A DNA stretch of 64,000 nucleotides, from NCBI GenBank assembly GCA_963666055.2, contig CAXWPH010000012.1, positions 413,976 through 477,975 on the forward strand, read 5' to 3'. Origin of the DNA: Acidobacteriota bacterium (GTDB taxonomy: Bacteria > Acidobacteriota > UBA890 > WLXD01). A program made the translations under genes and the position numbers. The notes beneath the pieces were generated by a model. It was not told where the DNA came from and ran no database searches. It worked only from the letters and a program-made list of their open reading frames with translations. Positions within the stretch are counted from its first letter, which is position 1; each line of letters starts with the position of its first letter. Positions 4,288 through 57,652 of the stretch are shown here, piece after piece.

Positions 4288-4288
4288 G

Positions 4289-4787: not shown

Positions 4788-4812
4788 ATCATGAACCCGG
4801 ATTCCACCTTAA

Positions 4813-9507: not shown

Positions 9508-9630
9508 CACCACCCTCGCCTCTACGGCAAGTTCCCCCGCGTATTGGGATACTAGGTGCGCGATCAGCCGCTGCGGTCCCTGGCGGACGCGATCCGCAAG
9601 ATGACCTCGCTGCCGGCGCAGGTTCTGCGG
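9508..9630 (+). pseudogene. fragment of N-acyl-D-amino-acid deacylase-type amidohydrolase
   Basis: [19 protein letters not shown]...LADAIRKMTSLPAQVL matches the HPR.YG.FPR.LG...EAIRKMTSLPA motif. Confidence 0.7.
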
Positions 9631-40367: not shown

Positions 40368-40563
40368 GTTTCCGAACGTCGTAGACAGGCCCTTCGACAC
40401 TTGAGAATGTCCTCCCTCCATGGTGCAATGCGCGTAGCTGCATGTCATCCTTGAGGGCAACATCGGGCCACCATCGATCGGTGACCGCCGGCGGGGCGCG
40501 AGCAACGCCGAGGGCGGGCGGGAGACGTATGTCGTGAGAGCTGGTGCGGAGCGCATCCGTGCG

Positions 40564-43020
40564 ATGTCGCGGCTGGCAGCAGCTACTCTGGGTGCCGGCT
40601 TGGTCGCAACGAGCCTGAGCGCCGCGGGCCCGGCGCAGAACAACACGAGGCGGGTCGATCTGCCACCGGCGGCCAACGAGATCGCCGCGAGTGCCGCAGG
40701 CTACCAGTCGCAGAATCGTGTCATCGGCCAGTATTGCGTGCGCTGCCACAACGACGCGAACCGTACCGCCGGCCTGTCGCTCGAGTCGTTCGACGTGGCT
40801 CGTGCCGACGAGAGCGCCGAAATCGTCGAAAAGATGATCCGCAAGCTGCAGGCCGGCATGATGCCGCCGCCGCCGCTGCGCCGGCCCGACCGGGCGACCG
40901 TCAACGCGCTGGTGACGTCGTTGGCAGGGCGCATCGATGATGCTGCGGCGGCCGGATTCTACGGCGGGGGCCGCACGTTTCAGCGGCTCAATCGCGCCGA
41001 GTACGAGCGTTCCGTGCGCCACTTGTTGGATCTTGAGATCGATGCCGACGCTTATCTGCCGCCCGACACGATCAGCGAGGGATTCGACAACGTGGCCGAT
41101 GTACAGGGTTTGTCGGTAACGGTGATGCAGGGGTTCTTGGCGGCGGCCGGCGAAGTGAGCCGCATGGCGCTCGGCAACGTAAGGGCCACGCCGAGCGCGA
41201 CGACATATTCGGTGTCGCGCTTCGCTTCACAGCGGCAGCAAGTGGACGGCGCGCCTTACGGCACGCGCGGCGGACTCTCGGTGATCCACCATTTCCCGGC
41301 CGATGCCGAGTACACGTTTGCGATGGATTTCTACGACTCGCCGATCGCCGCGCTGTTCGGCATGCGCACGCTACACGACGAGCAGATCGAGATCTCCATC
41401 AATGGCGAGCGGGTGGCGCTGGTAGATATCGATCGGTGGATGAACGCCGACAACGGTCTCCTCGAGGCCGATGCTCCGATCTTTGTCAGGGCGGGACCAC
41501 AACGCGTATCGGCGGCGTTTCTACAGCGCTTCGAGGGGCCTGTCGAAGACGCGCTCTCACCGCACGAGTGGAGCCTGGCCGACAAGAAGATCGGCAGCTC
41601 GTACGGGGTGACTTCCTTGCCGCATTTGCAGGACCTGATCATCGGTGGGCCCTACAACGCGAGGGGCGTGTCGGCAACGCCGAGCCGCGACCATATCTTT
41701 AGCTGCCGGCCTACGGCTCCAGACGAGGAGCTGCCGTGCGCTCGCCAGATCGTCTCGCGCCTGGCAACCGAGGCCTACCGACGGCCGCTGACAAGCGCCG
41801 ACGTCGATGCGCTGATCAGTTTCTACGAGAATGGTGCCGCCGGGGGCGGGTTCGAGATCGGAATCCGAGATGCCCTACAGGCAATCCTGGCGAGCCCCCA
41901 CTTCATCTTCCGTTTCGAGCAGGCAGCTGCCGACCTGCCAGCCGCATCGCATCGGATCAGCGATCTGACCCTTGCCTCGCGACTGTCATTCTTCCTCTGG
42001 GCCGCCGCCCCCGACGACGAGCTGGTTGAGCTGGCCCGGCACGGTCAGCTGTCCGACCCGCGGGTTATCGAGGTCCAAGTAGCCCGGATGCTGGCCGATC
42101 CGCGCGCGGCGTCGCTAGGCACGCGTTTCGCCGCCCAATGGCTTCGCCTCCAGGATCTGTACCTGGTGCAGCCGGATGCGGTGATGTACCCCGATTTCCC
42201 ACGACAGCTCGCCGATGCCATGCGCCAGGAGACCGAGCTGCTCTTCAACTATCTCGTGCGGGAAGATCGTGGCGTTCTCGAGTTGCTGACCGCCGACTAC
42301 ACGTTCGTCAACGAGCGTTTGGCCAGACACTACGGAATCCCGAATGTCGCCGGCACGCATTTCCGCAAGGTGCCCCAGAGCGATCGCAATCGACGAGGTA
42401 TTCTGGGGCACGGCAGCTTTCTCACCCTCACCTCGCACTCCAACCGAACCTCTCCGGTGCTGCGCGGCAAGTGGCTGATGGAGGTTCTGCTGGGCACTCC
42501 GCCTCCGCCTCCGCCTGCGGACGTGCCGGATCTCGAAGACAGCGATTTCGTCGGCGATACCAAGCTCACCACGGTGCGCGAGCGACTCGAGCAGCATCGT
42601 GCCGATCCGACCTGCATGTCGTGCCACCGGGTTATTGATCCGCTCGGCCTGGCGCTCGAGAACTTCGACGTCATGGGATCCTGGCGCATCAACGACAACG
42701 GCGTGCCGGTTCAGGTTGCGGGCGAGCTGTACGACGGTACGCAGCTGGAGGGCCCCATCGACCTGCAACGGGCGCTGCTGAACTACTCCGACGCCATCAT
42801 CACGAACTTCGCCAAGAACCTCATGGCCTATGGACTCGGCCGGCGGATCGAGTACACCGACATGCCTTTCATTCGGGCCATCGTTGCCGACGCGCGTAGG
42901 AATGACGACAGGATGTCGTCGTTCATCCTCGGCATCGTTCGCAGTCCCTTATTCCAGACCAACGACCGCGCATTGCGCATACAGGTAGCCGACGGCGATG
43001 GCGTCGAACACCGACCTTGA
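40564..43020 (+). CDS. DUF1587/1595/1592/1588/1585 planctomycete-type c-cytochrome protein
   Basis: CVRCH, GMMPP, RLNRAEY, LASRLSFFLW..PD, FAAQWL, RTSPVLRGKW, CMSCH..IDPLG.ALENFD; start uncertain (GTG 40534 or ATG 40564). Confidence 0.9.
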   Translation: MSRLAAATLGAGLVATSLSAAGPAQNNTRRVDLPPAANEIAASAAGYQSQNRVIGQYCVRCHNDANRTAGLSLESFDVARADESAEIVEKMIRKLQAGMMPPPPLRRPDRATVNALVTSLAGRIDDAAAAGFYGGGRTFQRLNRAEYERSVRHLLDLEIDADAYLPPDTISEGFDNVADVQGLSVTVMQGFLAAAGEVSRMALGNVRATPSATTYSVSRFASQRQQVDGAPYGTRGGLSVIHHFPADAEYTFAMDFYDSPIAALFGMRTLHDEQIEISINGERVALVDIDRWMNADNGLLEADAPIFVRAGPQRVSAAFLQRFEGPVEDALSPHEWSLADKKIGSSYGVTSLPHLQDLIIGGPYNARGVSATPSRDHIFSCRPTAPDEELPCARQIVSRLATEAYRRPLTSADVDALISFYENGAAGGGFEIGIRDALQAILASPHFIFRFEQAAADLPAASHRISDLTLASRLSFFLWAAAPDDELVELARHGQLSDPRVIEVQVARMLADPRAASLGTRFAAQWLRLQDLYLVQPDAVMYPDFPRQLADAMRQETELLFNYLVREDRGVLELLTADYTFVNERLARHYGIPNVAGTHFRKVPQSDRNRRGILGHGSFLTLTSHSNRTSPVLRGKWLMEVLLGTPPPPPPADVPDLEDSDFVGDTKLTTVRERLEQHRADPTCMSCHRVIDPLGLALENFDVMGSWRINDNGVPVQVAGELYDGTQLEGPIDLQRALLNYSDAIITNFAKNLMAYGLGRRIEYTDMPFIRAIVADARRNDDRMSSFILGIVRSPLFQTNDRALRIQVADGDGVEHRP

Positions 43021-43104
43021 CTGCAACCTTGCCGGAACAATTGGAGCTCGATTGACCCGCGGAAACGGGGGGACGGCGGTATACAACCGAGCCTTGGAGG
43101 AACG

Positions 43105-44496
43105 ATGTTCATTCTGAACAAGCCGCTTCCGCGCCGCACAGTTCTGCGCGGCGTGGGCGCAACCGTTGCATTGCCCTTGCTCGACGCGATGGTGCCAGCA
43201 GCTAGCTGGGCGCGGACTGGCGTCAACACCACCGATCCCATTCGGCTGATCTGTATCGAAATGGTGCACGGCGCTGCCGGCTGCAACGACTACGGTGCTT
43301 CGAAGAACTACTGGTCGCCCGCCGATACGGGCCGCCAATTCGATCTCAGCCCGAGCTCGCTGCGCGCCCTCGAGCCGTTTCGCGAATACCTGACCATCAT
43401 CAGCAATACCGACTGTCAGGGCGCCGAGGCGGTTATCCCCAAGGAGATCGGCGGCGATCACTTCCGCTCGAGCGCCGTCTTCCTGACCCAGGCGCACCCG
43501 CTGCAAACTCAGGGCTCGGACGTGCGCGTCGGCACCTCCATGGATCAGCTGTACGCCCAGCGCTTCGGTCAGAACACGCCGATTCCGTCAATGCAGCTGT
43601 GTATCGAGAACGTCGATGCCGCAGGCGGATGCGCGTACGGATACGCCTGCGTGTACACCGACACGATCAGTTGGGCTGCCCCGAATCGGCCGCTACCGAT
43701 GATCCGAGATCCTCGCGTGGTCTTCGATCAGCTGTTCGGTGTCGGGGGTACCCCGGAGGAGCGCGCCGAGCGCCGGCGAGCGGATCGCAGCATTCTCGAC
43801 TGGATAACCGGCGAGGTCTCACGCCTGAAGACCGGCTTCGGACCCGAAGATCGGCGGCGCATAGATCGGTATCTCGAGAATGTTCGTGAGATCGAGCGCC
43901 GAATACTGCGAATCGAGGAGCGCAACGCGAGCGGTGAGGTACGCGAGCTGCCCGCGGCCCCAGCGGGCGTGCCGGACTCCTTCGAGGAGCACGTCAAGCT
44001 CATGTTCGACCTCCAGGTTCTGGGCTTCGCTGCCGATGTGACCCGCGTGTTCTCGTTCAAGATGGGGCGCGACGCTTCGTCGCGCGTCTATCCAGAGAGC
44101 GGCACCAACAAGGGCTTCCACCCCGCCTCACACCACGGAGGCAAGGAAGAAAACGTCGACGAGTTTGCCCTCATCAACGACTACCACGTCAGCTTGATGC
44201 CGTACTTCCTGGAGCAGCTGCGGAACACGATGGAGGGTGACAGTAGTCTGCTCGACAAGAGCATGGTGATCTACGGGTCGCCGATGGGCGATCCGAACCT
44301 CCACAATCACAAGAGGTGCCCGTTGTTCGTTGTCGGCGGCGCCAACGGCCAGCTCGATGGGAACCTCCACCTGCGAGCCGACGCCGCCACCCCGATGGCC
44401 AACGTCATGTTGAGCCTGATGCACAAGCTCGGCCACAACGACATGACGAGCTTCGGTGATAGCACCGGCGAGTTCTCGCTATCGGCGCCGGCGTGA
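43105..44496 (+). CDS. DUF1552 (HXXSHH) protein, Tat leader
   Basis: LPRRTVLRGVGATVALPLLDAM, SMDQ, VFDQLFG, SILD, FHPASHH, FGDSTG; GGAGG RBS. Confidence 0.92.
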   Translation: MFILNKPLPRRTVLRGVGATVALPLLDAMVPAASWARTGVNTTDPIRLICIEMVHGAAGCNDYGASKNYWSPADTGRQFDLSPSSLRALEPFREYLTIISNTDCQGAEAVIPKEIGGDHFRSSAVFLTQAHPLQTQGSDVRVGTSMDQLYAQRFGQNTPIPSMQLCIENVDAAGGCAYGYACVYTDTISWAAPNRPLPMIRDPRVVFDQLFGVGGTPEERAERRRADRSILDWITGEVSRLKTGFGPEDRRRIDRYLENVREIERRILRIEERNASGEVRELPAAPAGVPDSFEEHVKLMFDLQVLGFAADVTRVFSFKMGRDASSRVYPESGTNKGFHPASHHGGKEENVDEFALINDYHVSLMPYFLEQLRNTMEGDSSLLDKSMVIYGSPMGDPNLHNHKRCPLFVVGGANGQLDGNLHLRADAATPMANVMLSLMHKLGHNDMTSFGDSTGEFSLSAPA

Positions 44497-46397
44497 TTCG
44501 GTCAGCGATGAGCTTTCGACGAAACAGCATGCTCCGACGATACGCAGGCCGACCGACCGTCGCGCTGATCGTCGCCGTTTGTCTGCCCGCGCTGGTGGCA
44601 GCGGCACCGAGTGCCTCACCGGTAGCCGACGCGGCGATGCGCGGCGATGCCGAGGCAGTGCACTCGTTGCTCCGGCAAGGCGCCGATGTAAACGCGGCCC
44701 AGGGTGATGGCATGACCGCCCTGCACTGGGCGGCGCGCAACGACGACAGCGCCATGCTCGAGATGCTGATCTACGCTGGTGCCAACCCCACCGCGGTCAC
44801 ACGAATCGGCGACTACACTGCGCTTCACCTGGCCGCCAAATCCGGGCACGCGCAAGCGGTCGAGGTATTATTGCGGGCCGGCAGCAGGGTGGACGCCATG
44901 ACAACGGCGGGAGGCGCGAGCGCCCTGCACTTCGCCTCGGCAGCGGGCGACTTGAACGCCATCACCGCGCTGCTGGACCATGGCGCCGACGTCAACGCAC
45001 GCGAGTCGACCTGGGGACAGACGTCGCTGATGTTTGCTGCCGCAGCGAACCGCGTCGAGGCGGTGGACCTGCTTGTTCGACGGGGCGCGGACTCCTCTAT
45101 CACGGCCAAGGTCGTCGATCTTCCTGCTTTCGAAGAACGCCTGAACGCCCAAAAGGAGCAGCGCGACCGACGCATCGCGGTGCTTCAGGCGATCGATCCG
45201 GAGGATTCCGTCGAGCCTGTGAAGCCCACGGCCTCGAGGGAGCCGCTCGACGCAACGCCGGCCGAGCCGACCGCCAATCCGACACCGGCTGCCGAGGCGA
45301 AGCCCGAGCCTGAGTCAGAGGAGACGCCATCTCCACCCGACGCCGGCTCGGCCGGATTCGAAGAGGAAGAGGACAAGGAAGAGGCGGAGGGAGAGCCGCC
45401 GAACTACGAGGACCTCGTCGGTACGCACGGCGGCATGACGGCGCTGCTGCACGCGGCACGCGAAGGTCATGGCGCCACCGTACAGGCCTTGCTGGAATCC
45501 GCAGCCGACGTCAATCTGGTCAACGCCGGCGATCGCACCAGCCCGCTACTGATGTCCGTGGTGAACGGCCACTTCGACCTGGCGATGTACCTTCTCGACC
45601 AAGGTGCCGATCCGGCCCTGGCAACCACCGGCGGCCTGACACCGCTCTACGCCGCCATAAAGGTGCAGTGGGCGCCCAAGTCGCGGTACCCACAGCAGTA
45701 CGCCTACACGCAGCAGCGCACTGGCTATATGGAGTTGCTACAGGCGCTGTTGGATGCGGGGGCCGATCCGAACGTTCGGCTCAATAAGCACCTCTGGCAT
45801 ATGTCGTACAACTTCCACCTGCTCGGCGTCGACTCCAAAGGTGCGACGCCGCTCTGGCGGGCCGCCTACGCCACCGATGTCGCGGCGATGCGGCTACTGG
45901 TCGCCCACGGCGCCGATCCGAAGGTGCCCACCCAGGTAGTGCCCAAGCGCCGGCGCTACGCGGACAGCGGCGGCGAGGACGGCAAGTCGGACCCCTCGGG
46001 TCTGCCCCCGGTGCCGATCGGCGGGCCCGCCGTATATCCCATCCACGCCGCCTCAGGCGTGGGATACGGCCAGGGCTACGCAGGGAACTCGCACCGGCAT
46101 GTGCCGGACGCGTGGTTGGCGACCGTTACGTATCTGATGGAAGAGCTCGGTGCGGACGTCAACACCCGCGACCATGACGGGTACGCGCCGCTGCACCATG
46201 CCGCCGCACGAGGAGACAATGAGCTCATCCGTTACCTCGTGGAGCACGGCGCCGATCCCACCTTGATAAGCCGCCGCGGTCAGACGACGGTCGATATGGC
46301 GAACGGACCCGTACAGCGCATCCAGCCGTTCCCCGAGACCATCGCGCTACTCGAGAGCTTGGGCGCCACGAACAGCCATAACTGCGTCTCCTGCTGA
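44493..46397 (+). CDS. secreted ankyrin-repeat protein (start may be slightly downstream)
   Basis: Multiple GADVN..G.TALH.AA repeats; acidic Pro/Glu linker; ends NCVSC. Confidence 0.9.
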   Translation: MIRSAMSFRRNSMLRRYAGRPTVALIVAVCLPALVAAAPSASPVADAAMRGDAEAVHSLLRQGADVNAAQGDGMTALHWAARNDDSAMLEMLIYAGANPTAVTRIGDYTALHLAAKSGHAQAVEVLLRAGSRVDAMTTAGGASALHFASAAGDLNAITALLDHGADVNARESTWGQTSLMFAAAANRVEAVDLLVRRGADSSITAKVVDLPAFEERLNAQKEQRDRRIAVLQAIDPEDSVEPVKPTASREPLDATPAEPTANPTPAAEAKPEPESEETPSPPDAGSAGFEEEEDKEEAEGEPPNYEDLVGTHGGMTALLHAAREGHGATVQALLESAADVNLVNAGDRTSPLLMSVVNGHFDLAMYLLDQGADPALATTGGLTPLYAAIKVQWAPKSRYPQQYAYTQQRTGYMELLQALLDAGADPNVRLNKHLWHMSYNFHLLGVDSKGATPLWRAAYATDVAAMRLLVAHGADPKVPTQVVPKRRRYADSGGEDGKSDPSGLPPVPIGGPAVYPIHAASGVGYGQGYAGNSHRHVPDAWLATVTYLMEELGADVNTRDHDGYAPLHHAAARGDNELIRYLVEHGADPTLISRRGQTTVDMANGPVQRIQPFPETIALLESLGATNSHNCVSC

Positions 46398-46436: not shown

Positions 46437-47222
46437 CTACTTGAGCGTCACCCAGATCAGATCGATCGGGGCATCGCCCGTGTTCCCCGACTCGTGCTGC
46501 TCGCTCAGGGGAACTGCCTCCATCCAGCCGACCGAGCCGGTCTCGGAGAACGGTGACGGATCGCGCTGCACGCCGCCGCGGCGTCCCGACCAGATGCCTC
46601 CCTTGATGTGGATGTAGACCTGGTTGCCGGGATGCGAGTGGATGCCCTCCCACTCACCGGGGCGGATGATAAACCGTTGTACGACGACGCGCTCGTTCTC
46701 CAGCAGCACCTCGCCGTCAGGGTCCGCCAGGTTCGGATAGGTCAACAGAACCTGCTTGTCGGCAGGACCAACCGGCGCATCTTTCTTCAGCGTCACCCAG
46801 ATCAGATCGATCGGGGCATCGCCGGTGTTGCCGGATTCGTGCCCCTCGCTGAGCGGAATCGCCTCCATCCAGCCCACCGAACCGTCCGCGGAGGGGGAAC
46901 CGGAAGAGGTAGGCTCGCCTCCTCCAGTAATGCCGGACCACTGCCCGCCCTTGACATGCACGTAGACCTGGTTGCCGGGATGAGAGTGGATCCCCTCCCA
47001 CTCGCCCGCGCCCACGACGAACCGTTGCACCACAACAAGCTCGTTCTCGAGCAGCACCTCGCCGTCAGGGTTCGCCAGGTTCGGATAGGTCAACAGAAAC
47101 TGCTTGTCGCTGGCGGCAGTAGGCGTGGCGATTTGTTCGGTCGGTGTCGGGGTCGGCTCGCTTCCGGCAGGGGCAACGGCGAACATGAGTATGACGAGGG
47201 TCAAAATCAATCTGCGGCGCAT
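46437..47222 (-). CDS. secreted tandem-cupin protein
   Basis: Signal peptide followed by two near-identical VLLENE.VVVQRF...GIHSHPGNQVY...HESGNTGDAPIDLIWVTLK units; GGAG RBS. Confidence 0.85.
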   Translation of the reverse strand: MRRRLILTLVILMFAVAPAGSEPTPTPTEQIATPTAASDKQFLLTYPNLANPDGEVLLENELVVVQRFVVGAGEWEGIHSHPGNQVYVHVKGGQWSGITGGGEPTSSGSPSADGSVGWMEAIPLSEGHESGNTGDAPIDLIWVTLKKDAPVGPADKQVLLTYPNLADPDGEVLLENERVVVQRFIIRPGEWEGIHSHPGNQVYIHIKGGIWSGRRGGVQRDPSPFSETGSVGWMEAVPLSEQHESGNTGDAPIDLIWVTLK

Positions 47223-47400: not shown

Positions 47401-47853
47401 ATGAAGCTTCGACCTACGACAATAGCCACGGCCACCTGCTTGGCTCTGGGCGGTTTTCTCACCGCGCTCGGTTCGCCCGCCACGGTTGGGGCAAGACAGA
47501 CTCAATCGGTGTGGAACGGGATCTATACCGTGGAGCAGGCGGAACGTGGCCGGCCGCTCTACGAAACCGCCTGCGCCGGGTGTCACGGCGCCGACCTCAC
47601 GGGCGGCGACGAAGCGCCGCTGCTTGCCGGCGGCGAGTTCGTCTGGACCTGGAACGGGCTGACGGTCGGAGCGCTATTCGAACGCATCCGTAAGTCGATG
47701 CCCGTTGACGATCCCGACAGCGTGAGTCGCCAGGAGAAGGCCGACATCCTCGCCTTCGTGTTTTCGGTCAACGAGTTTCCGGCCGGCGAGTCCGAGCTGA
47801 CTTCGCGCACCTCTGCGCTAGAACGAATCATGTTCGAGGCCATCCAGCAGTAG
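47401..47853 (+). CDS. class I c-type cytochrome, secreted
   Basis: SVWNGIYTVEQAERG, CAGCHG.DL.G, axial Met in SMP. Confidence 0.9.
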   Translation: MKLRPTTIATATCLALGGFLTALGSPATVGARQTQSVWNGIYTVEQAERGRPLYETACAGCHGADLTGGDEAPLLAGGEFVWTWNGLTVGALFERIRKSMPVDDPDSVSRQEKADILAFVFSVNEFPAGESELTSRTSALERIMFEAIQQ

Positions 47854-47911
47854 CGACCGAGCGCGCGCCGCCACAAACCTCGCGAGAGCGGTAGCGATCA
47901 GGAGAGAGACC

Positions 47912-48919
47912 ATGCGCGCAACGCAACAAATTCAGGCGGCGACCGGAGCCGCCCTACTCGCGCTCCTCGTGCCGTTGGCGGTCTTCGCCCGGGCGCAGGA
48001 CAATCCCTACCGCGTCGCCGATGCGGCCTGGGGCGAGCTCCCCGACGGTCGTACCTACGGATCCATAAGCGCGGTGCACCCGGCACCTGACGGGACCCTG
48101 TGGGTTGCCGACCGATGCGGCCAGAATAGCTGCCTCGGACGAGATGAGGCTCCCATCCTGCACTTCGATGCGTCCGGGAAGCTGCTCAACAGCTTCGGCG
48201 CCGGCTTGTTCGTGTGGCCTCACGGCATCGAGGTCGACGCGGAGGGCAACGTCTGGGTGACCGACGCCCAGGTTCGGAGCGGCCAGGGCAATCAGGTGCT
48301 GAAGTTCAGCCCGGAGGGCGAGCTGTTGCTGGCCCTGGGCCTCAAGGGCCGAGTCGACGGTGACCGCCCCGACTCGTTCACCGGACCGACGGACGTCGCC
48401 GTCACAGCGGCCGGCGACATCTTCGTCCTCGACGGACACGGCCCGCTCGGTAACAACCGTGTGGTGAGGTTCACAGGCGACGGTGAGTTGGTCACCTCTT
48501 GGGGCGAGACCGGAAGCGGGGTGGGCCAGTTTCACGATCCCCACGCTATCGACATCGATTCCCAGGGTCGTATCTTCGTCGGCGACCGCGGCAACAACCG
48601 CATCCAGATCTTCGATCAGGACGGCCACCATCTTGCTACGTGGACGCAGTTCGGGCGGCCGAGTGGCCTGTTTATCGACGCCAACGACGTTCTGTACGTG
48701 GCGGATTCGGAGTCGCACTCGGGCAACCCTGGCTACAGCCGTGGTATCCGCATCGGCAGCGCCACGGACGGCTGGGTCTCCGCCTTCATCCCCGACCCTG
48801 AGCCCAACCCCGGGAACTACATCACGAGTGGAGCGGAGGGGGTCGCGGCCGACGCCATGGGCAACGTCTTCGGCGCCGAGGTAACGAATCGGACGCTGGT
48901 GAAGTACGTCCGGCGGTAG
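47912..48919 (+). CDS. NHL-repeat beta-propeller, peptidyl-alpha-hydroxyglycine lyase (PAL)-like, secreted
   Basis: WPHGIEVD.EGNVWVTD, QVLKFSP.G, PTDVAV..GDIFVLDGH, PHAIDID, GDRGNNRIQIFD. Confidence 0.85.
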   Translation: MRATQQIQAATGAALLALLVPLAVFARAQDNPYRVADAAWGELPDGRTYGSISAVHPAPDGTLWVADRCGQNSCLGRDEAPILHFDASGKLLNSFGAGLFVWPHGIEVDAEGNVWVTDAQVRSGQGNQVLKFSPEGELLLALGLKGRVDGDRPDSFTGPTDVAVTAAGDIFVLDGHGPLGNNRVVRFTGDGELVTSWGETGSGVGQFHDPHAIDIDSQGRIFVGDRGNNRIQIFDQDGHHLATWTQFGRPSGLFIDANDVLYVADSESHSGNPGYSRGIRIGSATDGWVSAFIPDPEPNPGNYITSGAEGVAADAMGNVFGAEVTNRTLVKYVRR

Positions 48920-48955
48920 TCGCGCCGCGCCGCGGGCAGAACGCTGTTCCGCCGC

Positions 48956-50329
48956 CTACTCCTCGCTCTCGGCCGCTGCCCGGCGCTTGTCGACCTCGGC
49001 GTCGAAGTCCTCCTGTTCCATGTAGGTGAAGTCGATCCAGACGTGCGCCATCTCGTCGACGGTGCGGTCGCCGTAGCCAACCCACTGATCGGGATCCGGA
49101 TTGCTCGGATTGTCCTCGGTATTGTCGTGCCAGGTGGTGACCAGCAGCGTCGTTCCGGCAGGCAGCAACGGCGCCACATCATCGTCATAGATGTAGTTGA
49201 TGTGCCAGTTCCATTGGAAATCGCCGACGTGGCTGAGTACCTCCCGACGACCATCCGGATAGATCGCTTCCAAGGTCTGCGCCTTGCCACGCATGTGCAT
49301 GTGTGGCTGGAAGTTCTCGATCCGCGCCGGGGCGACGAGCACTTGCTGGTGCTGGATGACGCTGACCTGGTGCGGCGGGATGTCCAGCCGGGACTCGCGC
49401 GACCCCTCGCCAATCATTCCCAGCATCGTACGGTGCTTTGGCACGTAGTCGCGGGGATAGAAGTACACGCCCAGCTCGACGACGTCGTCGGTCACCTGTG
49501 CGCCGTACGCGTAATAGTGCACCTCCCACTGAATCATCGAACCGGGCAACATCAGCTTGCCCGCGGTAGGGGGAAACACTTCGCCGACCTTGCCGATCGC
49601 CCACTCCATGAAGGTCCCGGCGCGGCGTGCCTCTGGAGGAACGTTGCTCGCCAGGCCGACAATGTCGTCCTCCTCTTGGAGTAGATAGGTGAGGACGTGA
49701 TGCACTGCTTTGCGTCCCCCAGGGTAGGACGGCTTGATCTCGATGGCGCGCACCCAACGTGCCTCGGTCAGGCCGGTCTCGACGATGGGGCGCCACCATT
49801 TGTCCTCGCCGAGATCCTCCACGGTGTATGGCTCCGAACGGACGATCAGATCGGGCTCACCGAACTCGTCGGCCAGCCGCCATTCGGCGGGGTCAGGGAA
49901 GTCGCGCGGCGGCGGCATGTCGGCGGGATCACCCATGGGGGCGCCCTCATCGATCCAACGAACGATGGTGGCCAACTCGTCGTCGGTCAGCGAACGGTCG
50001 TTCTTGTAGCGCTGGATTCCGACCGTCTTGTCGATGTGCCAGGGTGGCATACGACGCGCTACCAGCGCCTTGCGAATCGGCCTGAGAAAAGCTCGTACGT
50101 CCTCATATGTCAGCAACGACATCGGAGCGATGGAGTCTGGCTTGTGGCACTCCTGACACTTCACCTGGAGGATCGGCGCTACATCCTTGGTGAATGTGAT
50201 CGGGTCGTCGTCCGCGATCGGCGCACTGCCCGAGAAGGCGCTCCCGCTTAAGGCCAATACCACGACGAAGGCGACGCTGGCGATAGCGAGGCTCTGCAAC
50301 ACGCGAGGGTAAGACCGGTTGCTTGTCAT
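48956..50329 (-). CDS. copper type II (PHM/DBH-like) monooxygenase fused to N-terminal c-type heme domain, secreted
   Basis: TFTKDVAPILQVKCQECH, MPPW; Cu ligands VHH, EVHY, PHMH, DEM; AGGAG RBS. Confidence 0.85.
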   Translation of the reverse strand: MTSNRSYPRVLQSLAIASVAFVVVLALSGSAFSGSAPIADDDPITFTKDVAPILQVKCQECHKPDSIAPMSLLTYEDVRAFLRPIRKALVARRMPPWHIDKTVGIQRYKNDRSLTDDELATIVRWIDEGAPMGDPADMPPPRDFPDPAEWRLADEFGEPDLIVRSEPYTVEDLGEDKWWRPIVETGLTEARWVRAIEIKPSYPGGRKAVHHVLTYLLQEEDDIVGLASNVPPEARRAGTFMEWAIGKVGEVFPPTAGKLMLPGSMIQWEVHYYAYGAQVTDDVVELGVYFYPRDYVPKHRTMLGMIGEGSRESRLDIPPHQVSVIQHQQVLVAPARIENFQPHMHMRGKAQTLEAIYPDGRREVLSHVGDFQWNWHINYIYDDDVAPLLPAGTTLLVTTWHDNTEDNPSNPDPDQWVGYGDRTVDEMAHVWIDFTYMEQEDFDAEVDKRRAAAESEE

Positions 50330-50340
50330 GGTGGGCTCCT

Positions 50341-51189
50341 TCATGGAGTAACGGTGACTCGTACAAACGAATTCGTCCAGCAGCACTGGGCATGCCCCGC
50401 GGCAAAGGTCCCCGAGACGTCGTTGGCGAGCACTCGAAGGACGTACTTTCCCGGTGCGCTGAATGTCGCGGTGGTGGTCGCTTTTCCGCCATCTGCGCGA
50501 TCGACCGAGGGGGTGGCATCGCCAAACGAGACTTCCCCCTCGCCCTGGTGCTTGTGCCAGGTAAGGTCGAGGGTGTCTCCGGTGGACCTCCGGTGCCAAT
50601 ACGACTCGCTTCTGGCATCGTCGATCGCCCAGACCGTGAGGGTCAGCGGATCGCCGACGGCAACGGTCCGGGGCGGACCGTAGATTCCTCCCGGCCCGCT
50701 ACCTCCCGGGCCATCAGCGGCGAACTTGACAACCGGCGGCGTGTTCTGCACGCCCGCCTCGCCTTCCAGGGCATCGATGTAATAGCCGCGTTCCAGGTGC
50801 CCCGGTATCGAGTACGTCTTGCCGCGAATGACGATCGTCCAGAAGAGCTTCTGGTCGCCGAAATCGGCCGGCACTTTGACGCCGAACACGCCCCAGTGAC
50901 GACGTGGCCCAAAGCGGGTCGGCTGGCCCCGGTCGGGGTCGCCGGTCTCGAAACGATTGTTCGGACCCAGCGGAATCTCGACGAGCTCTTCCGAGTTGCG
51001 GTTGAAGTAGCCGAACGAGAGCGTCCGTGTGTCATCCGAGTTTATGTACCAGCCCTCGAAGACCGGGGTTACCCCCTCCCCTGACCTTGCCACGGGCCCG
51101 AGCGGTAGCTGGCGAGCAAAGAGTGCCGTGCTAGCTGTAGCGACGGCAACCGCGGTCAGCAGTACTAATGCCACGCGACCTCTAGACAT
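50341..51189 (-). CDS. conserved secreted hypothetical protein with C-terminal PKD/Ig-like domain
   Basis: Signal peptide, VTPVFEGW...SFGYFNRN, ATFSAPGKYVLRVLAND, AQCCWTN; ends 12 bp upstream of the monooxygenase. Confidence 0.8.
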   Translation of the reverse strand: MSRGRVALVLLTAVAVATASTALFARQLPLGPVARSGEGVTPVFEGWYINSDDTRTLSFGYFNRNSEELVEIPLGPNNRFETGDPDRGQPTRFGPRRHWGVFGVKVPADFGDQKLFWTIVIRGKTYSIPGHLERGYYIDALEGEAGVQNTPPVVKFAADGPGGSGPGGIYGPPRTVAVGDPLTLTVWAIDDARSESYWHRRSTGDTLDLTWHKHQGEGEVSFGDATPSVDRADGGKATTTATFSAPGKYVLRVLANDVSGTFAAGHAQCCWTNSFVRVTVTP

Positions 51190-51389
51190 CGGCTCTCCTG
51201 AGGAGGATCCGCACATGGGCGCTCGGGGCAATCCTGTGTGCGCCCGCAGGTGGAAGAGATCGTACACGTACCATCGGCCAGCACGGTCAGTCAACGAAGG
51301 GTGCACCGCGAATGAGCGCGGATACAATAGCCGCCGCTCCACCATGCGCCAAGCAACCACCCCGTGATCGAAGAACCAGCGGTAGAGAG

Positions 51390-52673
51390 TTGAAAATACG
51401 AAGTAATCGGTACGTGATCCTCGCCTGCCTGATAGTGGCCGGAGAGATGGTGTTCTCTCTGCCATTCCACGTGGGCAGGTTCTTCCGCGCTACGACCCTC
51501 GCCGTGTTCGGTTTCTCGAACACGCAATTCGGTGATGCCTTCGCGGTCTACGGCGTCACGGCGATGCTCTCCTATTTCTTCGGCGGCCCGCTCGCCGATC
51601 GCTTCTCCGCGCGCAAGCTGATCGCCACGTCGCTATTCGCCACTGGCTTGGGTGGCTTCTACATGGCGAGCATCCCGGGCTTCGCCGGCACCACGTTCTT
51701 GTTCGGGTACTGGGGGGCCACCACCATCCTCTTCCTGTGGGCCGCGATGATCCGCGCTACCCGCGAGTGGGGCGGCGTGGCGGCGCAGGGGCGCGCGTTC
51801 GGATTGCTGGATGGCGGCCGTGGTCTGGCAGCTGCGGCCATGGCCAGCGTCGCGGTCGTGCTCTTCGGGCTGTTTCTACCCGGCGAGACGACTGAGATAA
51901 CGGCGACCGAGCGGCTCGCTGCGCTCCGCGCGGTCATCTATTTCTACACCGCAATGACCATCGCCGCGGGGGCCCTCGTATTGCTCGTCATACCCGAGTC
52001 GAAGCGCAACCACCTCTCGTCCCCGCGCAGCCCGCTTCCGGCGCTGCGGGCGGTCGTGGGTACGGCGTCCGTCTGGGCTCAGGCGCTTATCGTCGTGTGC
52101 GCCTACTGTGCCTACAAAGGTCTAGACAACTACTCGCTCTACGCCGTCGAGGTGATGGGAATGAGCGAGCTCCAGGCGGCGCAGTTCACCGCCAGCGCGA
52201 CGTACCTCCGCCTGTTCGGGGCGATCGGCGCCGGGTTACTCGCCGACCGCTTCACCGCCCGGCGAACCCTGGCCGGACTCTTCATGATTCTGACGGTGAG
52301 CTACGTCGCCCTGGCGCTGTCGAGCCCGGCGGCAGGACTGGTCGGTGTCATCTACGCCAACCTCCTCGTAACCTTCGCCGCTACCTACGGTCTTCGCGGC
52401 ATCTATTTCGCCCTGCTGGAGGAGACCAAGGTGCCGAGCACTAGCACCGGTACCGCGGTTGGCGTGATCTCCGTCGTCGGCTTCACGCCAGAGATATTCT
52501 TCGCGTCGATCGCCGGGCGGATTCTCGATTACTCACCGGGCGTCACCGGCCACCAGAACTTCTTCGCCTTCCTTGCGATGATCGCGGTGGTCGGGGTCGG
52601 CGCCTACTTCGTGCTGGCGCGTCTGTTGAGATCCCAGGATTCGCGAGCTACATCCGATCACGGCTGCGCGTGA
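51390..52673 (+). CDS. MFS transporter
   Basis: About 12 TM segments; GGPLADRFSARK and GLLADRFTARR motif-A copies. Confidence 0.9.
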   Translation: MKIRSNRYVILACLIVAGEMVFSLPFHVGRFFRATTLAVFGFSNTQFGDAFAVYGVTAMLSYFFGGPLADRFSARKLIATSLFATGLGGFYMASIPGFAGTTFLFGYWGATTILFLWAAMIRATREWGGVAAQGRAFGLLDGGRGLAAAAMASVAVVLFGLFLPGETTEITATERLAALRAVIYFYTAMTIAAGALVLLVIPESKRNHLSSPRSPLPALRAVVGTASVWAQALIVVCAYCAYKGLDNYSLYAVEVMGMSELQAAQFTASATYLRLFGAIGAGLLADRFTARRTLAGLFMILTVSYVALALSSPAAGLVGVIYANLLVTFAATYGLRGIYFALLEETKVPSTSTGTAVGVISVVGFTPEIFFASIAGRILDYSPGVTGHQNFFAFLAMIAVVGVGAYFVLARLLRSQDSRATSDHGCA

Positions 52674-52687
52674 CGTTCGATAGGCGC

Positions 52688-55063
52688 TCAGGCCATCGAG
52701 TCCAACACCGCGTCAAGCGTCGCCACTAGCCGCTCCGCATGACTGGATGCGAAGACGATCGGGGGGCGGATCTTCAATACATTACCGTGCGGGCCCTCAC
52801 GCCCCACCAGCACGCCACGCTCCCGCAGCTGATTCACCACCCGGCGTGTTTCCACCGGCGCCGGCTCTCGTGTGCTTCGGTCGAGCACCAGCTCGACGCC
52901 GATGAACAGACCCGGGCCGCGCACGTCTCCGATCACCGCGTGACGATCTGCCAGTTCTTCCAAGGCCGTACGCAACTCGGCGCCGACTCGCTGAGCGTTC
53001 TGCTGCAGCTCTTCGATTTCAATGACATCGAGGACCGCCGTCGCCGCAGCGCACGACACCGGGTTGCCCCCGGTGGTGCTGAAGAACCCGCTGGCCGCCT
53101 GGAACTCCTCCGCCAGCTCTCGTCGCGTCACCACCGCACCTACCGGGTGACCGTTGCCGATCGGCTTGCCGAACGTGACGATGTCAGGCACGACACCGTC
53201 GACCTCGAATCCCCACATGTGCGCTCCGGTGCGTCCGAAGCCGGCCTGAACTTCGTCGGCAACACATAGTCCCCCAGCAGCCCGCACGCGGTCGAAGACA
53301 CCCGACAGGAACCCCGGCGGGATGTCGAAGATCCCGTCGCTACTGAGCACCGTGTCGATGAGGAACATGGCGGGCTCGTGACCCTTGTCACGCAACTTCG
53401 CGATGGCCGTGTCGGCGCCGGCAGCAAACTTCGCTCCGCGATCCTGATCGTCTCTGCGCCATCGACCGCGGTAATCGTCCGGCGGATCGATGGTCTCGAC
53501 ATAGGGGGCAATATCACCGTGGCGGCCTGAGGGCGACAGATCGTGAGTTATCTGGGTCACACCGTGATAGGCGTTGCGCGTCACCAGGGCTCCGCTGTGC
53601 CCTGTACAGGTGGCGGCGATACGCCACGCCAGGTCGTTGGCCTCGCTCCCCGACGAAACCAGCATGCATACTTCGAGCTCACCGGGCAGCGTGCCTACTA
53701 GCCGATCGCCGAACTCTACAATGTGCTCGTAGAGGTAGCGGGTGTTGGTGTTCAAGGTCGCTGCCTGGCGGGCGATCGCGCTCACCACGCTCGGATGACA
53801 GTGCCCCACTTGCGGGACGTTGTTGTAGCAATCCAGGTAGGCGGTCTGCTCAGGGCCGTACAGCCACACTCCCTCACCGCGCACCGTGTGGACCGGTGTC
53901 TCGTACGAGAGCTCGTAGCCGCTGCCCAGGCGTGCCACCCGTCGTCGCTGTAGAGCCGTCGTAGACGTCTCCGCCGGAACGGTAACCGTCGCTGGAGATA
54001 TCCCACAGGCGCTTCGGTACAGATCCGCTACTTCTTCATGACCAGCCGCCTGCATGGCCTCGAGCGAGTTGGCGAGATCTTCCTCGATGTTGTCGAAGTG
54101 ATCGCGCTCGTCCGAGAATGGCTTCCACGACTCGATGGCGAAAAACATCGCCAACCGGGTGGCTGCGAGCACCGGTAGCAGCTCGATCTCGAGGGGCTCC
54201 AACGGCGTCACCGAGTGAAACCCGGCAACGATCCGCGCACTCAGCGCCAGCTCGCCCTTGCGTCCGGACGGAATCTCTGCCGCTGCGACAGCGAGATCCT
54301 GGACCAGCGGGGCGTGGATCACGTCGCCGAAGTCGTACACGCCAGCGACACTCCAGGGGCGATCGGCGTCAACCAGCGCGTTGTGGAACGAGACGTCGTT
54401 GTGGATGATCTGGGCGCGCAAGCGCTGCAGCTGAGGCGCCGCCGTGCGATCGAACGTCTCGAACGCGGCTTCCGCCAGCACTCGATGCCGGTGGTCGACA
54501 ATTCCGCTCGCCAGCTCGCCGATCCGCCCCGCGCGCTTGATATCCCAGGCCAAGGGATGGTCGGCGGCCCGATGAAACAGTCCGCGCAGGCCGACGCCGA
54601 TCTTGGCGGTGATGGCGCCCAGCGCGTGCATCATGCGCGGATCGTCGGGCGCGTCCCCAACCAGCATGCCCGGCAGGTAGCTGAGCAACCTGGCGTGGTG
54701 CGGGCGTCCCTGGTCGTCGAGCACCTCAACCCAATGGGAGCGCGTGTTGCCCTCGAATAGACGCGGCACGGGAAGCGCCGGAGCCATCGATGCCAGGCGT
54801 CGAAGAACCGTGCACTGAAGGTCGATCAGCGCGGCAAAATCGGCCCGGTTGCCGATCTTGAGGACGCGCCGGTCATCATCGGCGCCGGTGAGCAAAAAGT
54901 TCTGGTCGCGCTCCCCACCGAGCGCTGCGGCTTCTCCCACGAAGCCGAAGGCCTCAGCCGCAATTGCAGCGGCATCGGCCACGCTGAACTCCGGCGGCGC
55001 CACCGATAAACAGCGCAGAAGCTCATCGAGGTCCGGTTCTGGTGTGGATTCGGGAGGGAGCAT
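52688..55063 (-). CDS. fusion of APH/hydroxylysine-kinase-like phosphotransferase and class III PLP aminotransferase/phospho-lyase
   Basis: LGGERDQNF, VLKI, IIHND, YDFGD; then YLDCYNNVPQVGHCHP, NTNTRYL, SGSEANDLA, DEVQAGFGR, TFGKPIGNG, VLKIRPP. Confidence 0.9.
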   Translation of the reverse strand: MLPPESTPEPDLDELLRCLSVAPPEFSVADAAAIAAEAFGFVGEAAALGGERDQNFLLTGADDDRRVLKIGNRADFAALIDLQCTVLRRLASMAPALPVPRLFEGNTRSHWVEVLDDQGRPHHARLLSYLPGMLVGDAPDDPRMMHALGAITAKIGVGLRGLFHRAADHPLAWDIKRAGRIGELASGIVDHRHRVLAEAAFETFDRTAAPQLQRLRAQIIHNDVSFHNALVDADRPWSVAGVYDFGDVIHAPLVQDLAVAAAEIPSGRKGELALSARIVAGFHSVTPLEPLEIELLPVLAATRLAMFFAIESWKPFSDERDHFDNIEEDLANSLEAMQAAGHEEVADLYRSACGISPATVTVPAETSTTALQRRRVARLGSGYELSYETPVHTVRGEGVWLYGPEQTAYLDCYNNVPQVGHCHPSVVSAIARQAATLNTNTRYLYEHIVEFGDRLVGTLPGELEVCMLVSSGSEANDLAWRIAATCTGHSGALVTRNAYHGVTQITHDLSPSGRHGDIAPYVETIDPPDDYRGRWRRDDQDRGAKFAAGADTAIAKLRDKGHEPAMFLIDTVLSSDGIFDIPPGFLSGVFDRVRAAGGLCVADEVQAGFGRTGAHMWGFEVDGVVPDIVTFGKPIGNGHPVGAVVTRRELAEEFQAASGFFSTTGGNPVSCAAATAVLDVIEIEELQQNAQRVGAELRTALEELADRHAVIGDVRGPGLFIGVELVLDRSTREPAPVETRRVVNQLRERGVLVGREGPHGNVLKIRPPIVFASSHAERLVATLDAVLDSMA

Positions 55064-55083
55064 CCGGTGCACCGAGACGCCCG

Positions 55084-56139
55084 CTAGCTCCTCAAGCCAG
55101 CTACGTAGCCGATATCGGCCTCGCTGACTGTCTCCGCGTCGCCGAGAGAATAGTGCTTCGACATGTCCGGTGAGTACCGGCTGGCGGGCGGCTGGCGTCC
55201 GAGTGCTTCGGCCATGGCACGAACATGGTGCGGTGCCCCCCCACAACAGATTCCCAGGTAGCGAATGTCGAGGTCACGTGCCTGGCGGGCAAACTCCGCC
55301 ATCTCGTAGCGGTTGCACGTGAACGCGTCGAGCGCCACCGGAAACGGCCGGCTTTCCGGTATGCAATCGCATGCCGGATCGGCCAGCGCCTGGAACGATT
55401 CGCAGTCGGGGGTCGTCCGATAGGGTACCGGGAGCAACGCCACGTGGCACGAAACGGCGGCGCGAATACGCTCCCCGACTGGCAACATGGTTGCGGGACC
55501 GCGGGTGCAGTTGAGACCCACGACGTCCGCCCCTGCTTGTTCGAGCCGTTGCGCCGCTTCCTCGACGGTCACGTCGTCGCGCAGGCGCGGATCCTCGTGC
55601 AGTGCCAAAGTGACCACCGCAGGCACTCCGGCCGCCTTGATGGCGCTGGCCGCTAGCTCGGCCTCGCCACAGTACGGGAACGTCTCGCCGATGATGAAAT
55701 CCACGCCCGCCTCGACAGCCCATTCGATCTGCTCGTCGAACATCGCCCGCACCTCGGACTCCGAGCTTGCGTCGACCCACAGGTTCGTGTTGCAGATGTT
55801 GCCGGCGACGAGCGGTGGGTTGGCTGGGAACTCCGAGGCCACCTCGAACGCCAGCGCCAGCGCCTGACGCTGCATGGGCTCCAGTAGGTCCTCCTTACCG
55901 ATGCTACGCAGCTTCTCACGATGCGCATAGTAGGTCAGCGCCTCGATCACGTCGGAGCCAGCGCGCACGAACTCACGATGCAACTGCTTTACCGAATCCG
56001 GAAACTCCAGCACCACTTCAGGCACAAAGGCACCCGCCTGTAGATAACCGCGCCGCTCGAGCTCGAACACGTAGCCTTCCGCACAGATGACGACTCCGGC
56101 GTCGAGCTGTTCGATCAGTCCTTTCTTCGGATTGCTCAT
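55084..56139 (-). CDS. betaine-homocysteine S-methyltransferase-like (homocysteine S-methyltransferase family)
   Basis: AEGYVFELERRGYLQAG, LHREFVRAGSDV, GLNC, LGICCG Zn ligands. Confidence 0.88.
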   Translation of the reverse strand: MSNPKKGLIEQLDAGVVICAEGYVFELERRGYLQAGAFVPEVVLEFPDSVKQLHREFVRAGSDVIEALTYYAHREKLRSIGKEDLLEPMQRQALALAFEVASEFPANPPLVAGNICNTNLWVDASSESEVRAMFDEQIEWAVEAGVDFIIGETFPYCGEAELAASAIKAAGVPAVVTLALHEDPRLRDDVTVEEAAQRLEQAGADVVGLNCTRGPATMLPVGERIRAAVSCHVALLPVPYRTTPDCESFQALADPACDCIPESRPFPVALDAFTCNRYEMAEFARQARDLDIRYLGICCGGAPHHVRAMAEALGRQPPASRYSPDMSKHYSLGDAETVSEADIGYVAGLRS

Positions 56140-56353
56140 GTCACACCCCGCCGATTTCAGCCCGCCTCACGCATGCCCGCCCCGTGCATCTGAGAACGGC
56201 TCCACAGAGGGTACACGCGGTGGCGAAATAGCGAGACCGAGATCGGCGCGCAGATCTTGGTCGACCCTCTCTCGCCGACCTGCGAGGCAGCCCGGGACCC
56301 CCGTCGACATGGAGAAAGACGGCGCGCTAGAATGCGCCGTTTGGGAGGAGCCC

Positions 56354-57652
56354 ATGTCGCTGTTGGCCGGCCGTATCGCAACCCTGGGGACCGAGAATGC
56401 CTTTCGGCTGGGTGCCGATATCCAGCGCTGTGTCGAGCGGGGTATGGAGGTCATCAGGTTCAATCTGGGCGAGCCTGACTTCGACAGCGCCCCGCACATC
56501 AACCGTGAGGCCATCGCGCAGATCGAGGCGGGGAACTCGCACTATTGCGACCCCGCCGGATTGCTCGGCTTACGCGAGAGCATCGCACGGCATGTTTCGG
56601 CGACCCGTGAGATCGACGTCGATCCCGGCCGAGTGGTGGTGACCACGGGCGGCAAGCCACCGATCGGCTACACCTTCCAGACCTACGTCGACCCTGGCGA
56701 CGAGGTCATCTACCCGAGCCCCGGGTTTCCGATCTACGAGTCGTGGGTCACGTTCGTCGGCGCCGTTCCGGTACCGCTGCAACTCTCCGAGGACGCCGGG
56801 TTCGGCTTCTCCGCCGATGAATTAGCGACGCTGATCACCGAGCGCACCAAGCTGATCATCCTCTGCTCGCCGTCGAACCCGACCGGCGGAGTGGTCTCCC
56901 GGAAAGACCTCGGCGAGATCGCCGCGGTGATTCGCGAGCGCTGCCGCCCGGAGGTCAGAATTTACTCCGACGAGATCTACGAGCACATTCTGTTCGACGG
57001 CGAGGCCCACCACAGCATCGCCTCCCATCCCCAGATGCCCGAGCGCACCGTCCTAGTGAGCGGCCACTCGAAAGGCTTCGCGATGACCGGATGGCGACTC
57101 GGCTTCGCCGTGCTGCCGAGCCTCGAGGAGGCGGCGATCTTCAAACAGCTCAACATCAACATCGTCTCCTGCGTGCCGGCATTCATCCAGGAGGCTGGCC
57201 GCGAGGCCCTCGAGAACCCTGAATCCGAGCGCACGGTGGGTGAGCTGGTGACGGCCTTCGAGAGGCGCCGCGACTGGGTGGTGCCAGCGCTAGCCGGCAT
57301 CAACGGCTTTCGATGCCAGAACCCGAAGGGCGCCTTCTATGTGTTCCCCAACGTCGCCGGAGCTTGTGAGCGTCTGGGCGTCCTCGAAGCCCACGCTGGC
57401 ATGGCGCCCGAGGTCCGTGCGCGGACCAGCCCATCGGGGATGTTGCAGATGTTCCTGCTCTACCACTACGGCGTGGCGACGATGGATCGTCCCTCGTTCG
57501 GCCAGGTAGGCGCCGAAGGCCAACATTTCTTGCGGCTCTCGATTGCCACCGGGATGGAGGAAATCAAGCGTGGCGTGGCTCGGATCGCTGAGGCGGTCGA
57601 GGATCGGCAGGGCTTCGAGGCCTTTTTCGAGGAGCAGCACCTATGGGACTGA
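56354..57652 (+). CDS. class I/II PLP aminotransferase (aspartate aminotransferase-like)
   Basis: NLGEPDF, SPSNPTG, SDEIY, SKGFAMTGWRLG, GAFYVFPN; GGAGGAG RBS. Confidence 0.92.
   Translation: MSLLAGRIATLGTENAFRLGADIQRCVERGMEVIRFNLGEPDFDSAPHINREAIAQIEAGNSHYCDPAGLLGLRESIARHVSATREIDVDPGRVVVTTGGKPPIGYTFQTYVDPGDEVIYPSPGFPIYESWVTFVGAVPVPLQLSEDAGFGFSADELATLITERTKLIILCSPSNPTGGVVSRKDLGEIAAVIRERCRPEVRIYSDEIYEHILFDGEAHHSIASHPQMPERTVLVSGHSKGFAMTGWRLGFAVLPSLEEAAIFKQLNINIVSCVPAFIQEAGREALENPESERTVGELVTAFERRRDWVVPALAGINGFRCQNPKGAFYVFPNVAGACERLGVLEAHAGMAPEVRARTSPSGMLQMFLLYHYGVATMDRPSFGQVGAEGQHFLRLSIATGMEEIKRGVARIAEAVEDRQGFEAFFEEQHLWD

Follow-up and report, generated by a model that had tools for sequence, protein, structure and literature searches.

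The closest described relatives of the system treated here are peptidylglycine alpha-hydroxylating monooxygenase (PHM), dopamine beta-hydroxylase (DBH) and peptidyl-alpha-hydroxyglycine alpha-amidating lyase (PAL); in animals the first two are hydroxylases which serve in making peptide hormones and noradrenaline. PHM, the hydroxylating half of rat PAM (PDB 1PHM, 1OPM, 1SDW, 5WJA), is a secreted protein of two beta-sandwiches which carry, in this order, a CuH site with three His ligands and a CuM site with two His and one Met; its residues R240, N316 and Y318 bind the C-terminal glycine of the substrate (PMC12164859). The corresponding ligands of DBH (PDB 4ZEL) are H262/H263/H333 and H412/H414/M487, and this protein has in addition an N-terminal DOMON domain and a C-terminal dimerisation domain (PMC4846438). 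PAL, known from rat (PDB 3FVZ) and from Exiguobacterium (ExiPAL), is an NHL six-bladed propeller, for which PMC10900485 gives H95, H210, H309, Y178 and R225 as the metal and catalytic residues of ExiPAL. A table in a 2020 review places PHM and DBM solely among the eukaryotic copper proteins (PMC7435645). Here we describe a bacterial locus in a stretch of 64,000 nucleotides, called the window in the following, from the assembly GCA_963666055.2 of an Acidobacteriota bacterium (contig CAXWPH010000012.1, positions 413,976 to 477,975). One of its genes encodes P0001, in which a heme c domain is joined to a predicted dicopper core of the PHM/DBH type, and the adjacent gene encodes P0004, the fixed and conserved partner of this enzyme. 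A first-pass annotation of the same DNA had proposed a heme-c-fused PHM-type monooxygenase working together with a PAL-like propeller, P0002, and a cytochrome c, P0003.

P0001 begins with a hydrophobic N-terminus which was assigned by eye, as were the other signal peptides in this study, as a signal peptide. Then follow a mono-heme c domain (residues ~43-135), the two beta-sandwiches for CuH and CuM (~158-440) and a C-terminal helix; the only cysteines are those of the heme motif. M94 in an MPPW motif (codon at 50050) is likely to be the distal heme ligand. A c-type cytochrome is indicated by the CxxCH motif in a predicted exported protein together with the maturation genes ccmE and ccmF, which were both found in the genome, and the enzyme is likely to be exported and periplasmic.

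The enzyme is recognised solely by a diverse family profile and by its fold: P0001 has no relevant match in Pfam or NCBIfam, and single-sequence searches of the PDB also failed to recognise it. A Foldseek search, which the first-pass annotation had suggested against PHM structures, matched the AlphaFold model (pLDDT, the predicted local distance difference test, 83.7) to human DBH and rat PHM with E from 4e-12 to 2e-8. The VIA fold comparison gave Z 20.2 for DBH (root-mean-square deviation 3.5, 268 residues aligned) and Z 19.7 for PHM (2.6, 241 residues), the next unrelated fold having Z 8.4. At the sequence level, rat PHM (E 5.7e-9) and DBH (E 8.6e-8) were both found with a profile made from 28 diverse members, whose alignment matches all six ligands, in the motifs HH, VHY, HxH and DEM, to the copper ligands of PHM. 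In an alignment of 129 rows, some of which duplicate sequences from this same genome, no row departs from the CxxCH motif, from M94 or from any of the five His ligands, and M427 is conserved in 126 rows with gaps in the other 3. The heme motif and the copper ligands are also retained in 153 of 154 stretches, taken from 150 distant representatives and the query. Some family members are already tagged by Pfam: the paralogue C7:213929 exceeds the PF03712 cut-off (24.7 against 23 bits) and the domain is present in 12-13% of the members of neighbouring Atlas clusters; P0001 itself matches neither Cu2_monooxygen nor Cu2_monoox_C. The heme-c-fused PHM-type enzyme of the first-pass annotation is upheld by these results, and the coordinates and motifs which it gave for the enzyme, propeller and cytochrome genes were correct (Table 1).

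Table 1. Positions of the genes and motifs discussed; coordinates are those of the window unless a locus is named.
Feature	Position	Strand	Remarks
P0003, mono-heme cytochrome c	47401..47853	+	family that accompanies PQQ dehydrogenases
P0002, His/Glu-type NHL six-bladed propeller, 335 amino acids	47912..48919	+	PAL-related; loose companion
P0001, catalytic subunit, 457 amino acids	48956..50329	-	heme c domain and predicted PHM/DBH-type core
CQECH heme c attachment motif (C58/C61/H62)	50144..50158	-	
Predicted CuH ligands H210, H211 (HH) and H271 (VHY)	49517..49702	-	equivalent to PHM H107, H108, H172
Predicted CuM ligands H343, H345 (HMH) and M427 (DEM)	49049..49303	-	equivalent to PHM H242, H244, M314
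Partner stop, AGGAG, enzyme ATG 11 bp on	50330..50344	-	read from the sequence
P0004, dedicated partner, 282 amino acids	50341..51189	-	two beta-sandwich domains and QCCW
MFS transporter gene (context)	51312..52673	+	directly 3' of the propeller in G003, which lacks the enzyme pair
DUF1592/PSD cytochrome, DUF1552 (HXXSHH) and ankyrin genes (context)	40534..46397	+	
WNLK lipoprotein-like partners	L147 12776-13357; L150 7801-8460; L151 5250-5942 and 7202-7885		

P0001 is nevertheless not a PHM. The two share ~16% identity, and P0001 differs by its fused heme c, by the QCCW partner described below, by the lack of a PAL fusion and by the residues in the glycine clamp, where the profile alignment puts Q341, H429 and W431 into the columns of R240, N316 and Y318. 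An Arg in the R240 column was found in none of the 129 close rows and in 1 of the 154 distant stretches. Since the clamp residues are absent, the substrate is likely not a glycine-extended peptide. DBH, the best structural match, has the same ligand set and, as also tyramine beta-monooxygenase, may be compared with P0001 for its accessory N-terminal domain; the Gln two residues before the CuM HxH motif of P0001 is presumably shared with DBH. In P0001, however, a helical CxxCH cytochrome c replaces the DOMON domain that marks the DBH/TBH/MOXD1 group, there is no dimerisation domain, the chain stopping after one helix, the partner is encoded by a separate gene, and the electron donor is likely a protein instead of ascorbate.

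The propeller P0002 carries the motifs WPHG, DGH, DPHAI, DRGNNRIQ and GAEG and is homologous to rat PAL (E 6e-25); its NHL six-bladed fold was judged by sequence. Two Zn-binding His and the catalytic Arg are kept (H104, H211 and R226, spaced like H95, H210 and R225 of ExiPAL), whereas the catalytic Tyr is replaced by His (H176) and the third Zn His by Glu (E309); the first-pass annotation had noted this as DGH and GAEG. The DGH and AEG replacements are fixed across a large propeller subfamily which has its own CGxNxC motif (conserved C69-C74). With the clamp replaced in the enzyme and the Tyr and third His replaced in the propeller, neither protein can be counted as a member of PHM or PAL.

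These replacements bear directly on the canonical split PAM of the first-pass annotation, in which peptidyl- or acyl-glycines would be hydroxylated and then cleaved by a PAL-type enzyme to amide and glyoxylate, the latter being used by the reductase encoded at 57687. Such a scheme could draw on the PHM fold and ligands, on the PAL match of the propeller and on the active bacterial PALs which have been described (PMC10900485), and R422 and H429, invariant in the subfamily, could substitute for the lost clamp. It is at variance with the Q/H/W and His/Glu replacements, and this genome has other propellers in which DGY and the final His are intact (among them C15:1142676 and C15:1080367), all of which lie more than 8 kb from any enzyme gene. 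The reductase was found in only 1 of 80 related enzyme loci from GTDB and was not seen in the stretches examined from two relatives (G003, G004), so that it loses its place in the pathway. None of the genes called in the window stood out as a precursor peptide, for which no dedicated search was made. We regard this form of the model as very improbable.

The gene which does accompany the enzyme is that of P0004. It was left out of the first-pass annotation, although the range treated there ended at 51189, the first base of this minus-strand gene. P0004 has a signal peptide and two beta-sandwich domains, the second of which is PKD/Ig-like (model pLDDT 86.6). Fold searches returned generic Ig/PKD sandwiches only, the best with Z 10.3 over 109 residues, and the N-terminal domain was barely covered. 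A vicinal-cysteine motif, QCCW, is encoded at ~50377-50388 on the minus strand, and the two cysteines, C269/C270, are conserved in 77 of 80 rows. It should be noted that in all linkage counts given in this paper the related genomes and loci are not independent. A relative of P0004 adjoins the enzyme in 75 of the 80 GTDB loci; of the 71 complete pairs, 42 have it upstream and 29 downstream. Four of the five loci without a partner stop at a contig edge on one side. The 31 partner genes found in 41 relatives include 29 with an enzyme gene no more than 1 kb away and 2 at contig ends, and the partner is present for 29 of the 30 closest enzyme genes and for 0 of 51 more distant matches. In the genome itself all six paralogues of this type have their own copy of the partner. 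Enzyme and partner are also found as single chains, in P0332 and in 11 of 18 longer partner relatives, with the domains in both orders, and one group of four such fusions at 70-76% identity lacks the second signal peptide. A correlation between enzyme and partner distances (Spearman 0.80, 71 pairs) was set aside as evidence for binding, because adjacent genes are co-inherited. The fixed partner of the enzyme is thus P0004 and not, as had been proposed, the propeller; in G003, from the same genus, cytochrome and propeller are kept without the enzyme.

Two observations on the partner family may be added. Next to the paralogue C14:537181 the partner is cut to 146 amino acids and lacks the QCCW domain (L149 7594-8034). 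Partner-like domains are also found fused to FG-GAP repeats or alpha/beta hydrolases in P0404, P0405, P0397 and P0407, three of which are without CCW; their clusters have from 4 to 107 members.

P0004 might be a maturation factor, delivering copper or serving as thiol reductant, instead of a lasting subunit. The invariant vicinal cysteines would suit such a role, and so would the redoxin domains of other family members: 27 of 150 representatives carry a fused AhpC/TSA-like domain, as does the paralogue C6:392838, and members of this kind have no QCCW neighbour. Yet each of the six paralogues keeps its own partner, and a specific subunit therefore fits better than a shared chaperone. No His residue of the partner is conserved across subfamilies, one partner (L065) lacks the CC, and a third subfamily uses a cysteine-poor lipoprotein as partner. 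A second and unrelated partner family, lipoprotein-like, with a WNLK motif and without a Pfam match, adjoins four distant paralogues in this genome (Table 1). Other longer members of the enzyme family have TPR tails, according to a Pfam scan of 68 of the 106 long representatives. On balance we find a maturation factor unlikely.

The neighbouring genes suggest where the electrons come from. A cytochrome of the P0003 family is present in 13 of the 80 related loci, mostly together with a pyrroloquinoline quinone (PQQ) dehydrogenase, which agrees with the cytochrome-type electron supply of the first-pass annotation. PQQ dehydrogenases were found in 27 of the 80 loci by clustering and in 24 by a stricter search, where ~3.4 would be expected at the density of 19 in this genome. 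The 24 mostly abut the enzyme pair, often together with a P0003-type cytochrome, and contain neither a vicinal CC nor a CxxCH. In the genome itself cytochrome, PQQ dehydrogenase, partner and enzyme are co-oriented on contig C6, and the order on C15 is enzyme, partner, PQQ dehydrogenase. P0003-family cytochromes adjoin PQQ dehydrogenases both near the enzyme pair and near the propeller, and in this genus the cytochrome travels with the propeller. The likeness to the periplasmic PQQ dehydrogenase/cytochrome c systems (PF01011) lies in this neighbourhood; the difference is that the electron sink here is likely a copper monooxygenase and not just a terminal oxidase. From the linkage and from the chemistry of PHM and DBH we infer that electrons could pass from the dehydrogenase over the cytochrome and the fused heme to CuH and CuM.

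The flow could also have the opposite direction, the dicopper core oxidising a substrate, or reducing O2 or NO, without hydroxylation, while the heme exports electrons or shuttles them to the respiratory chain. Periplasmic heme c fusions are often dehydrogenases, and the heme domain of P0001 resembles that of hydrazine synthase alpha (E 0.0055). But the complete H3/H2M ligand set of the O2-activating PHM and DBH is retained, and the recurrent neighbours are electron donors, and we consider a reversed flow quite improbable.

The position of the propeller is more complicated. A propeller is present in 5 of the 80 enzyme loci, with 3 of the His/Glu type in this unbiased set. Of 58 propeller matches in the relatives, 4 have an enzyme match within 8 kb, and this locus accounts for 3 of the 4. 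At the level of the family the association is above chance: out of 130 His/Glu propellers, 11 have a partner gene within 8 kb, a count which omits 43 weaker partner matches, where 2.2 are expected, and 3 have one within 1.5 kb against 0.6 expected. The linkage of NHL protein and monooxygenase across genomes, as foreseen in the first-pass annotation, therefore stands above chance for the family but is found in only a minority of loci. There are also fusions of partner and propeller, namely P0396, in which the propeller is of the His/Glu type and 53% identical to P0002, and L186 and L187. L186 (700-6517) contains a co-oriented run of enzyme, partner/His-Glu propeller fusion, PQQ dehydrogenase and cytochrome c. 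A metagenome search with P0396 gave 69 partner loci, of which 61 have the enzyme, 14 have some propeller and 6 have a close relative of P0002 directly behind the partner (2 fused; 1 ends before its motif); linkage is over-represented here, since these loci were picked with a fusion as query. In a quick IQ-TREE analysis of 55 rows, labelled linked or free by hand, many of the free ones having flanks of 1.5 kb only, one clade of 18 rows (Shimodaira-Hasegawa-like approximate likelihood ratio test 98) contains 12 linked members, among them all 3 His/Glu propellers of the unbiased 80 loci. A His/Glu propeller is present in 49 of 50 genomes with the enzyme pair (chosen for the enzyme, out of 78 tried), where it clusters near the pair above chance, and in 11 of 12 genomes which carry the partner. 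The idea that the propeller is purely a chance neighbour was softened by the fusions, the clade and the 11 of 130 linked cases.

These findings are what would be expected if the enzyme pair hydroxylates a small amide, amine or ether beside the N or O, and the His/Glu propeller, as a metal lyase or hydrolase, then cleaves the carbinolamide or hemiacetal; this would be the logic of PAM with another substrate and with the propeller gene usually elsewhere. The PAL-like spacing of H104, H211 and R226 would fit such a reaction. The propeller of the window, however, falls in another group of 25 rows in which the only linked members are the three orthologues of this locus. G003 keeps the propeller without the cassette, and G005, G007 and G013 (91-97% complete) have a propeller and no enzyme match. 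Among the nearest neighbours of the propeller, P0003-type cytochromes (11 of 30) and PQQ dehydrogenases (9 of 30) both outnumber the partner (1 of 30), and the 30 loci closest to P0002 contain 9 cytochromes, 1 PQQ dehydrogenase and 3 enzymes. As the propeller stands nearer to cytochrome and PQQ genes, its link to the enzyme pair may be indirect. No fusion of enzyme and propeller occurs among the 150 representatives. We therefore hold a common pathway of this kind to be doubtful. The propeller-enzyme link is weak, above chance in a minority of loci, and not obligate, at variance with the hydroxylase-lyase linkage of the PAM two-step system. Propeller and cytochrome belong first to a propeller/cytochrome/PQQ-dehydrogenase module. 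They may take part in one periplasmic redox network with the enzyme but do not form an indispensable half of it; in our reading the enzyme pair and the propeller are spokes around a PQQ/cytochrome hub. The first 278 nucleotides of the window (plus strand) are the 3' end of a second His/Glu propeller paralogue (G000:C12:413108-414253), of which the genome has six.

The arrangement of the genes agrees with this separation. P0001 and P0002 are convergent with 36 bp between their ends, as had been stated, and no convincing terminator or promoter was found around this gap (z 0.1-0.3). Partner and enzyme likely share one transcript with coupled translation, because an AGGAG and the ATG of the enzyme follow 11 bp past the stop of the partner. 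The ATG at 50329, which has the AGGAG in front of it, was kept as start; a TTG further upstream, at 50599, was rejected, since a gene starting there would run into that of the partner. In five of five genomes of the genus examined, the plus-strand PSD-HXXSHH-ankyrin run ends in cytochrome and propeller. The enzyme pair is inserted at the same spot as in the window in G002 and G004, and in G003, where it is missing, the MFS gene follows the propeller at a distance of 3 bp. The enzyme-partner cassette is inserted head-to-head into a different operon, which cytochrome and propeller terminate.

Some further observations concern the surroundings. The DUF1592/PSD-DUF1552-ankyrin operon also adjoins the enzyme pair in L006 and L075 (2 of 80 loci). 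A secreted protein with two near-identical cupin-like repeats is encoded at 46437-47222 (minus strand) and is found at this spot in G001 and G002, not in G003 and G004. The genes at 52688-57652 and 57687-58721 encode an APH-aminotransferase III fusion, a homocysteine methyltransferase, a class I aminotransferase and a 2-hydroxyacid dehydrogenase, of which only the homocysteine methyltransferase is retained at this spot in G003 and G004. The stretches 4277-5842 and 9172-9555 hold integrase and insertion sequence-type transposase genes and a Ser/Thr kinase fragment of 127 amino acids which ends just before an M28 peptidase. Three related flavin adenine dinucleotide oxidoreductase genes or fragments (6820-8385, 36413-38428 and 63281-64000) include two with the same terminal residues and two which begin with a twin-arginine-type leader. 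The window also encodes four sulfatases and two TonB-type receptors.

The model which we prefer, and consider fairly probable, is that the two-gene cassette encodes a periplasmic two-subunit monooxygenase in which the heme c replaces ascorbate as the electron inlet and whose likely reaction is C-H hydroxylation of a small organic compound other than a glycine-extended peptide. The enzyme would be exported by Sec and receive its heme from Ccm. PQQ dehydrogenases would oxidise sugars or alcohols and hand the electrons to a soluble cytochrome c, for example of the P0003 family, from which they would reach the fused heme, then CuH and finally CuM. CuM would take up O2 and hydroxylate the substrate. 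The QCCW protein would sit on the enzyme as a second subunit which closes or shapes the cleft, its vicinal cysteines being a structural or a redox element.

A number of observations weigh against this model. In L071 the enzyme gene is flanked by complete sequence on both sides and no partner was matched there, which makes this locus a true miss. Since the partner also shares single chains with other proteins, namely a propeller, alpha/beta hydrolases and FG-GAP domains, fusion by itself is no proof of binding. There is no PQQ dehydrogenase in the 64-kb window, about two thirds of the related loci have none within 8 kb, and a search of the genome for pqqC, in which the control gave no signal either, returned no match. 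To these points should be added the near-constant presence of the His/Glu propeller in genomes with the pair and its clustering there.

The family is large. There are at least 7,998 relatives of the enzyme at 90% clustering, and at 50% identity the clusters number 8,065 if E is limited to 1e-30 and 19,560 if it is limited to 1e-10. The genome studied here has 11 copies, and the nearest named relatives are from Acidobacteriota and Gemmatimonadota. Full-text literature searches, which did not cover most subscription papers, turned up no work on a PHM-like enzyme with fused heme from bacteria. Bacterial PAL- and PHM-like sequences are said to have been noticed in older papers, and a notice in print at the level of the sequence is possible. 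A heme-wired enzyme of the PHM/DBH type with a dedicated second protein is apparently very widespread and unstudied. P0002 in turn defines a separate, large and uncharacterised His/Glu subfamily of PAL-like propellers.

The built-in heme offers a coloured and triggerable electron donor without ascorbate, and would make the long-standing questions of open versus closed forms and of ascorbate gating in PHM and DBH (PMC12164859) directly testable. Fusions which nature already provides as one chain, P0332 among them, can be used directly as constructs, and for rebuilding the network as a whole no other locus is as well suited as L186. That network can be sketched tentatively, as an idea to which we give a low probability: in soil and marine Acidobacteriota and Gemmatimonadota, PQQ dehydrogenases would pass electrons over cytochrome c to a self-wired heme/dicopper monooxygenase with a vicinal-cysteine subunit, and the His/Glu propeller would cleave the product. 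If this were true, it would be a prokaryotic, ascorbate-free counterpart, and possibly an ancestor, of the chemistry of PAM and DBH, with thousands of substrate-specific versions which break C-N or C-O bonds in organic matter. With this family, uncultured bacteria that are abundant may possess a major route, so far unrecognised, for oxidising C-H bonds outside the cytoplasm.

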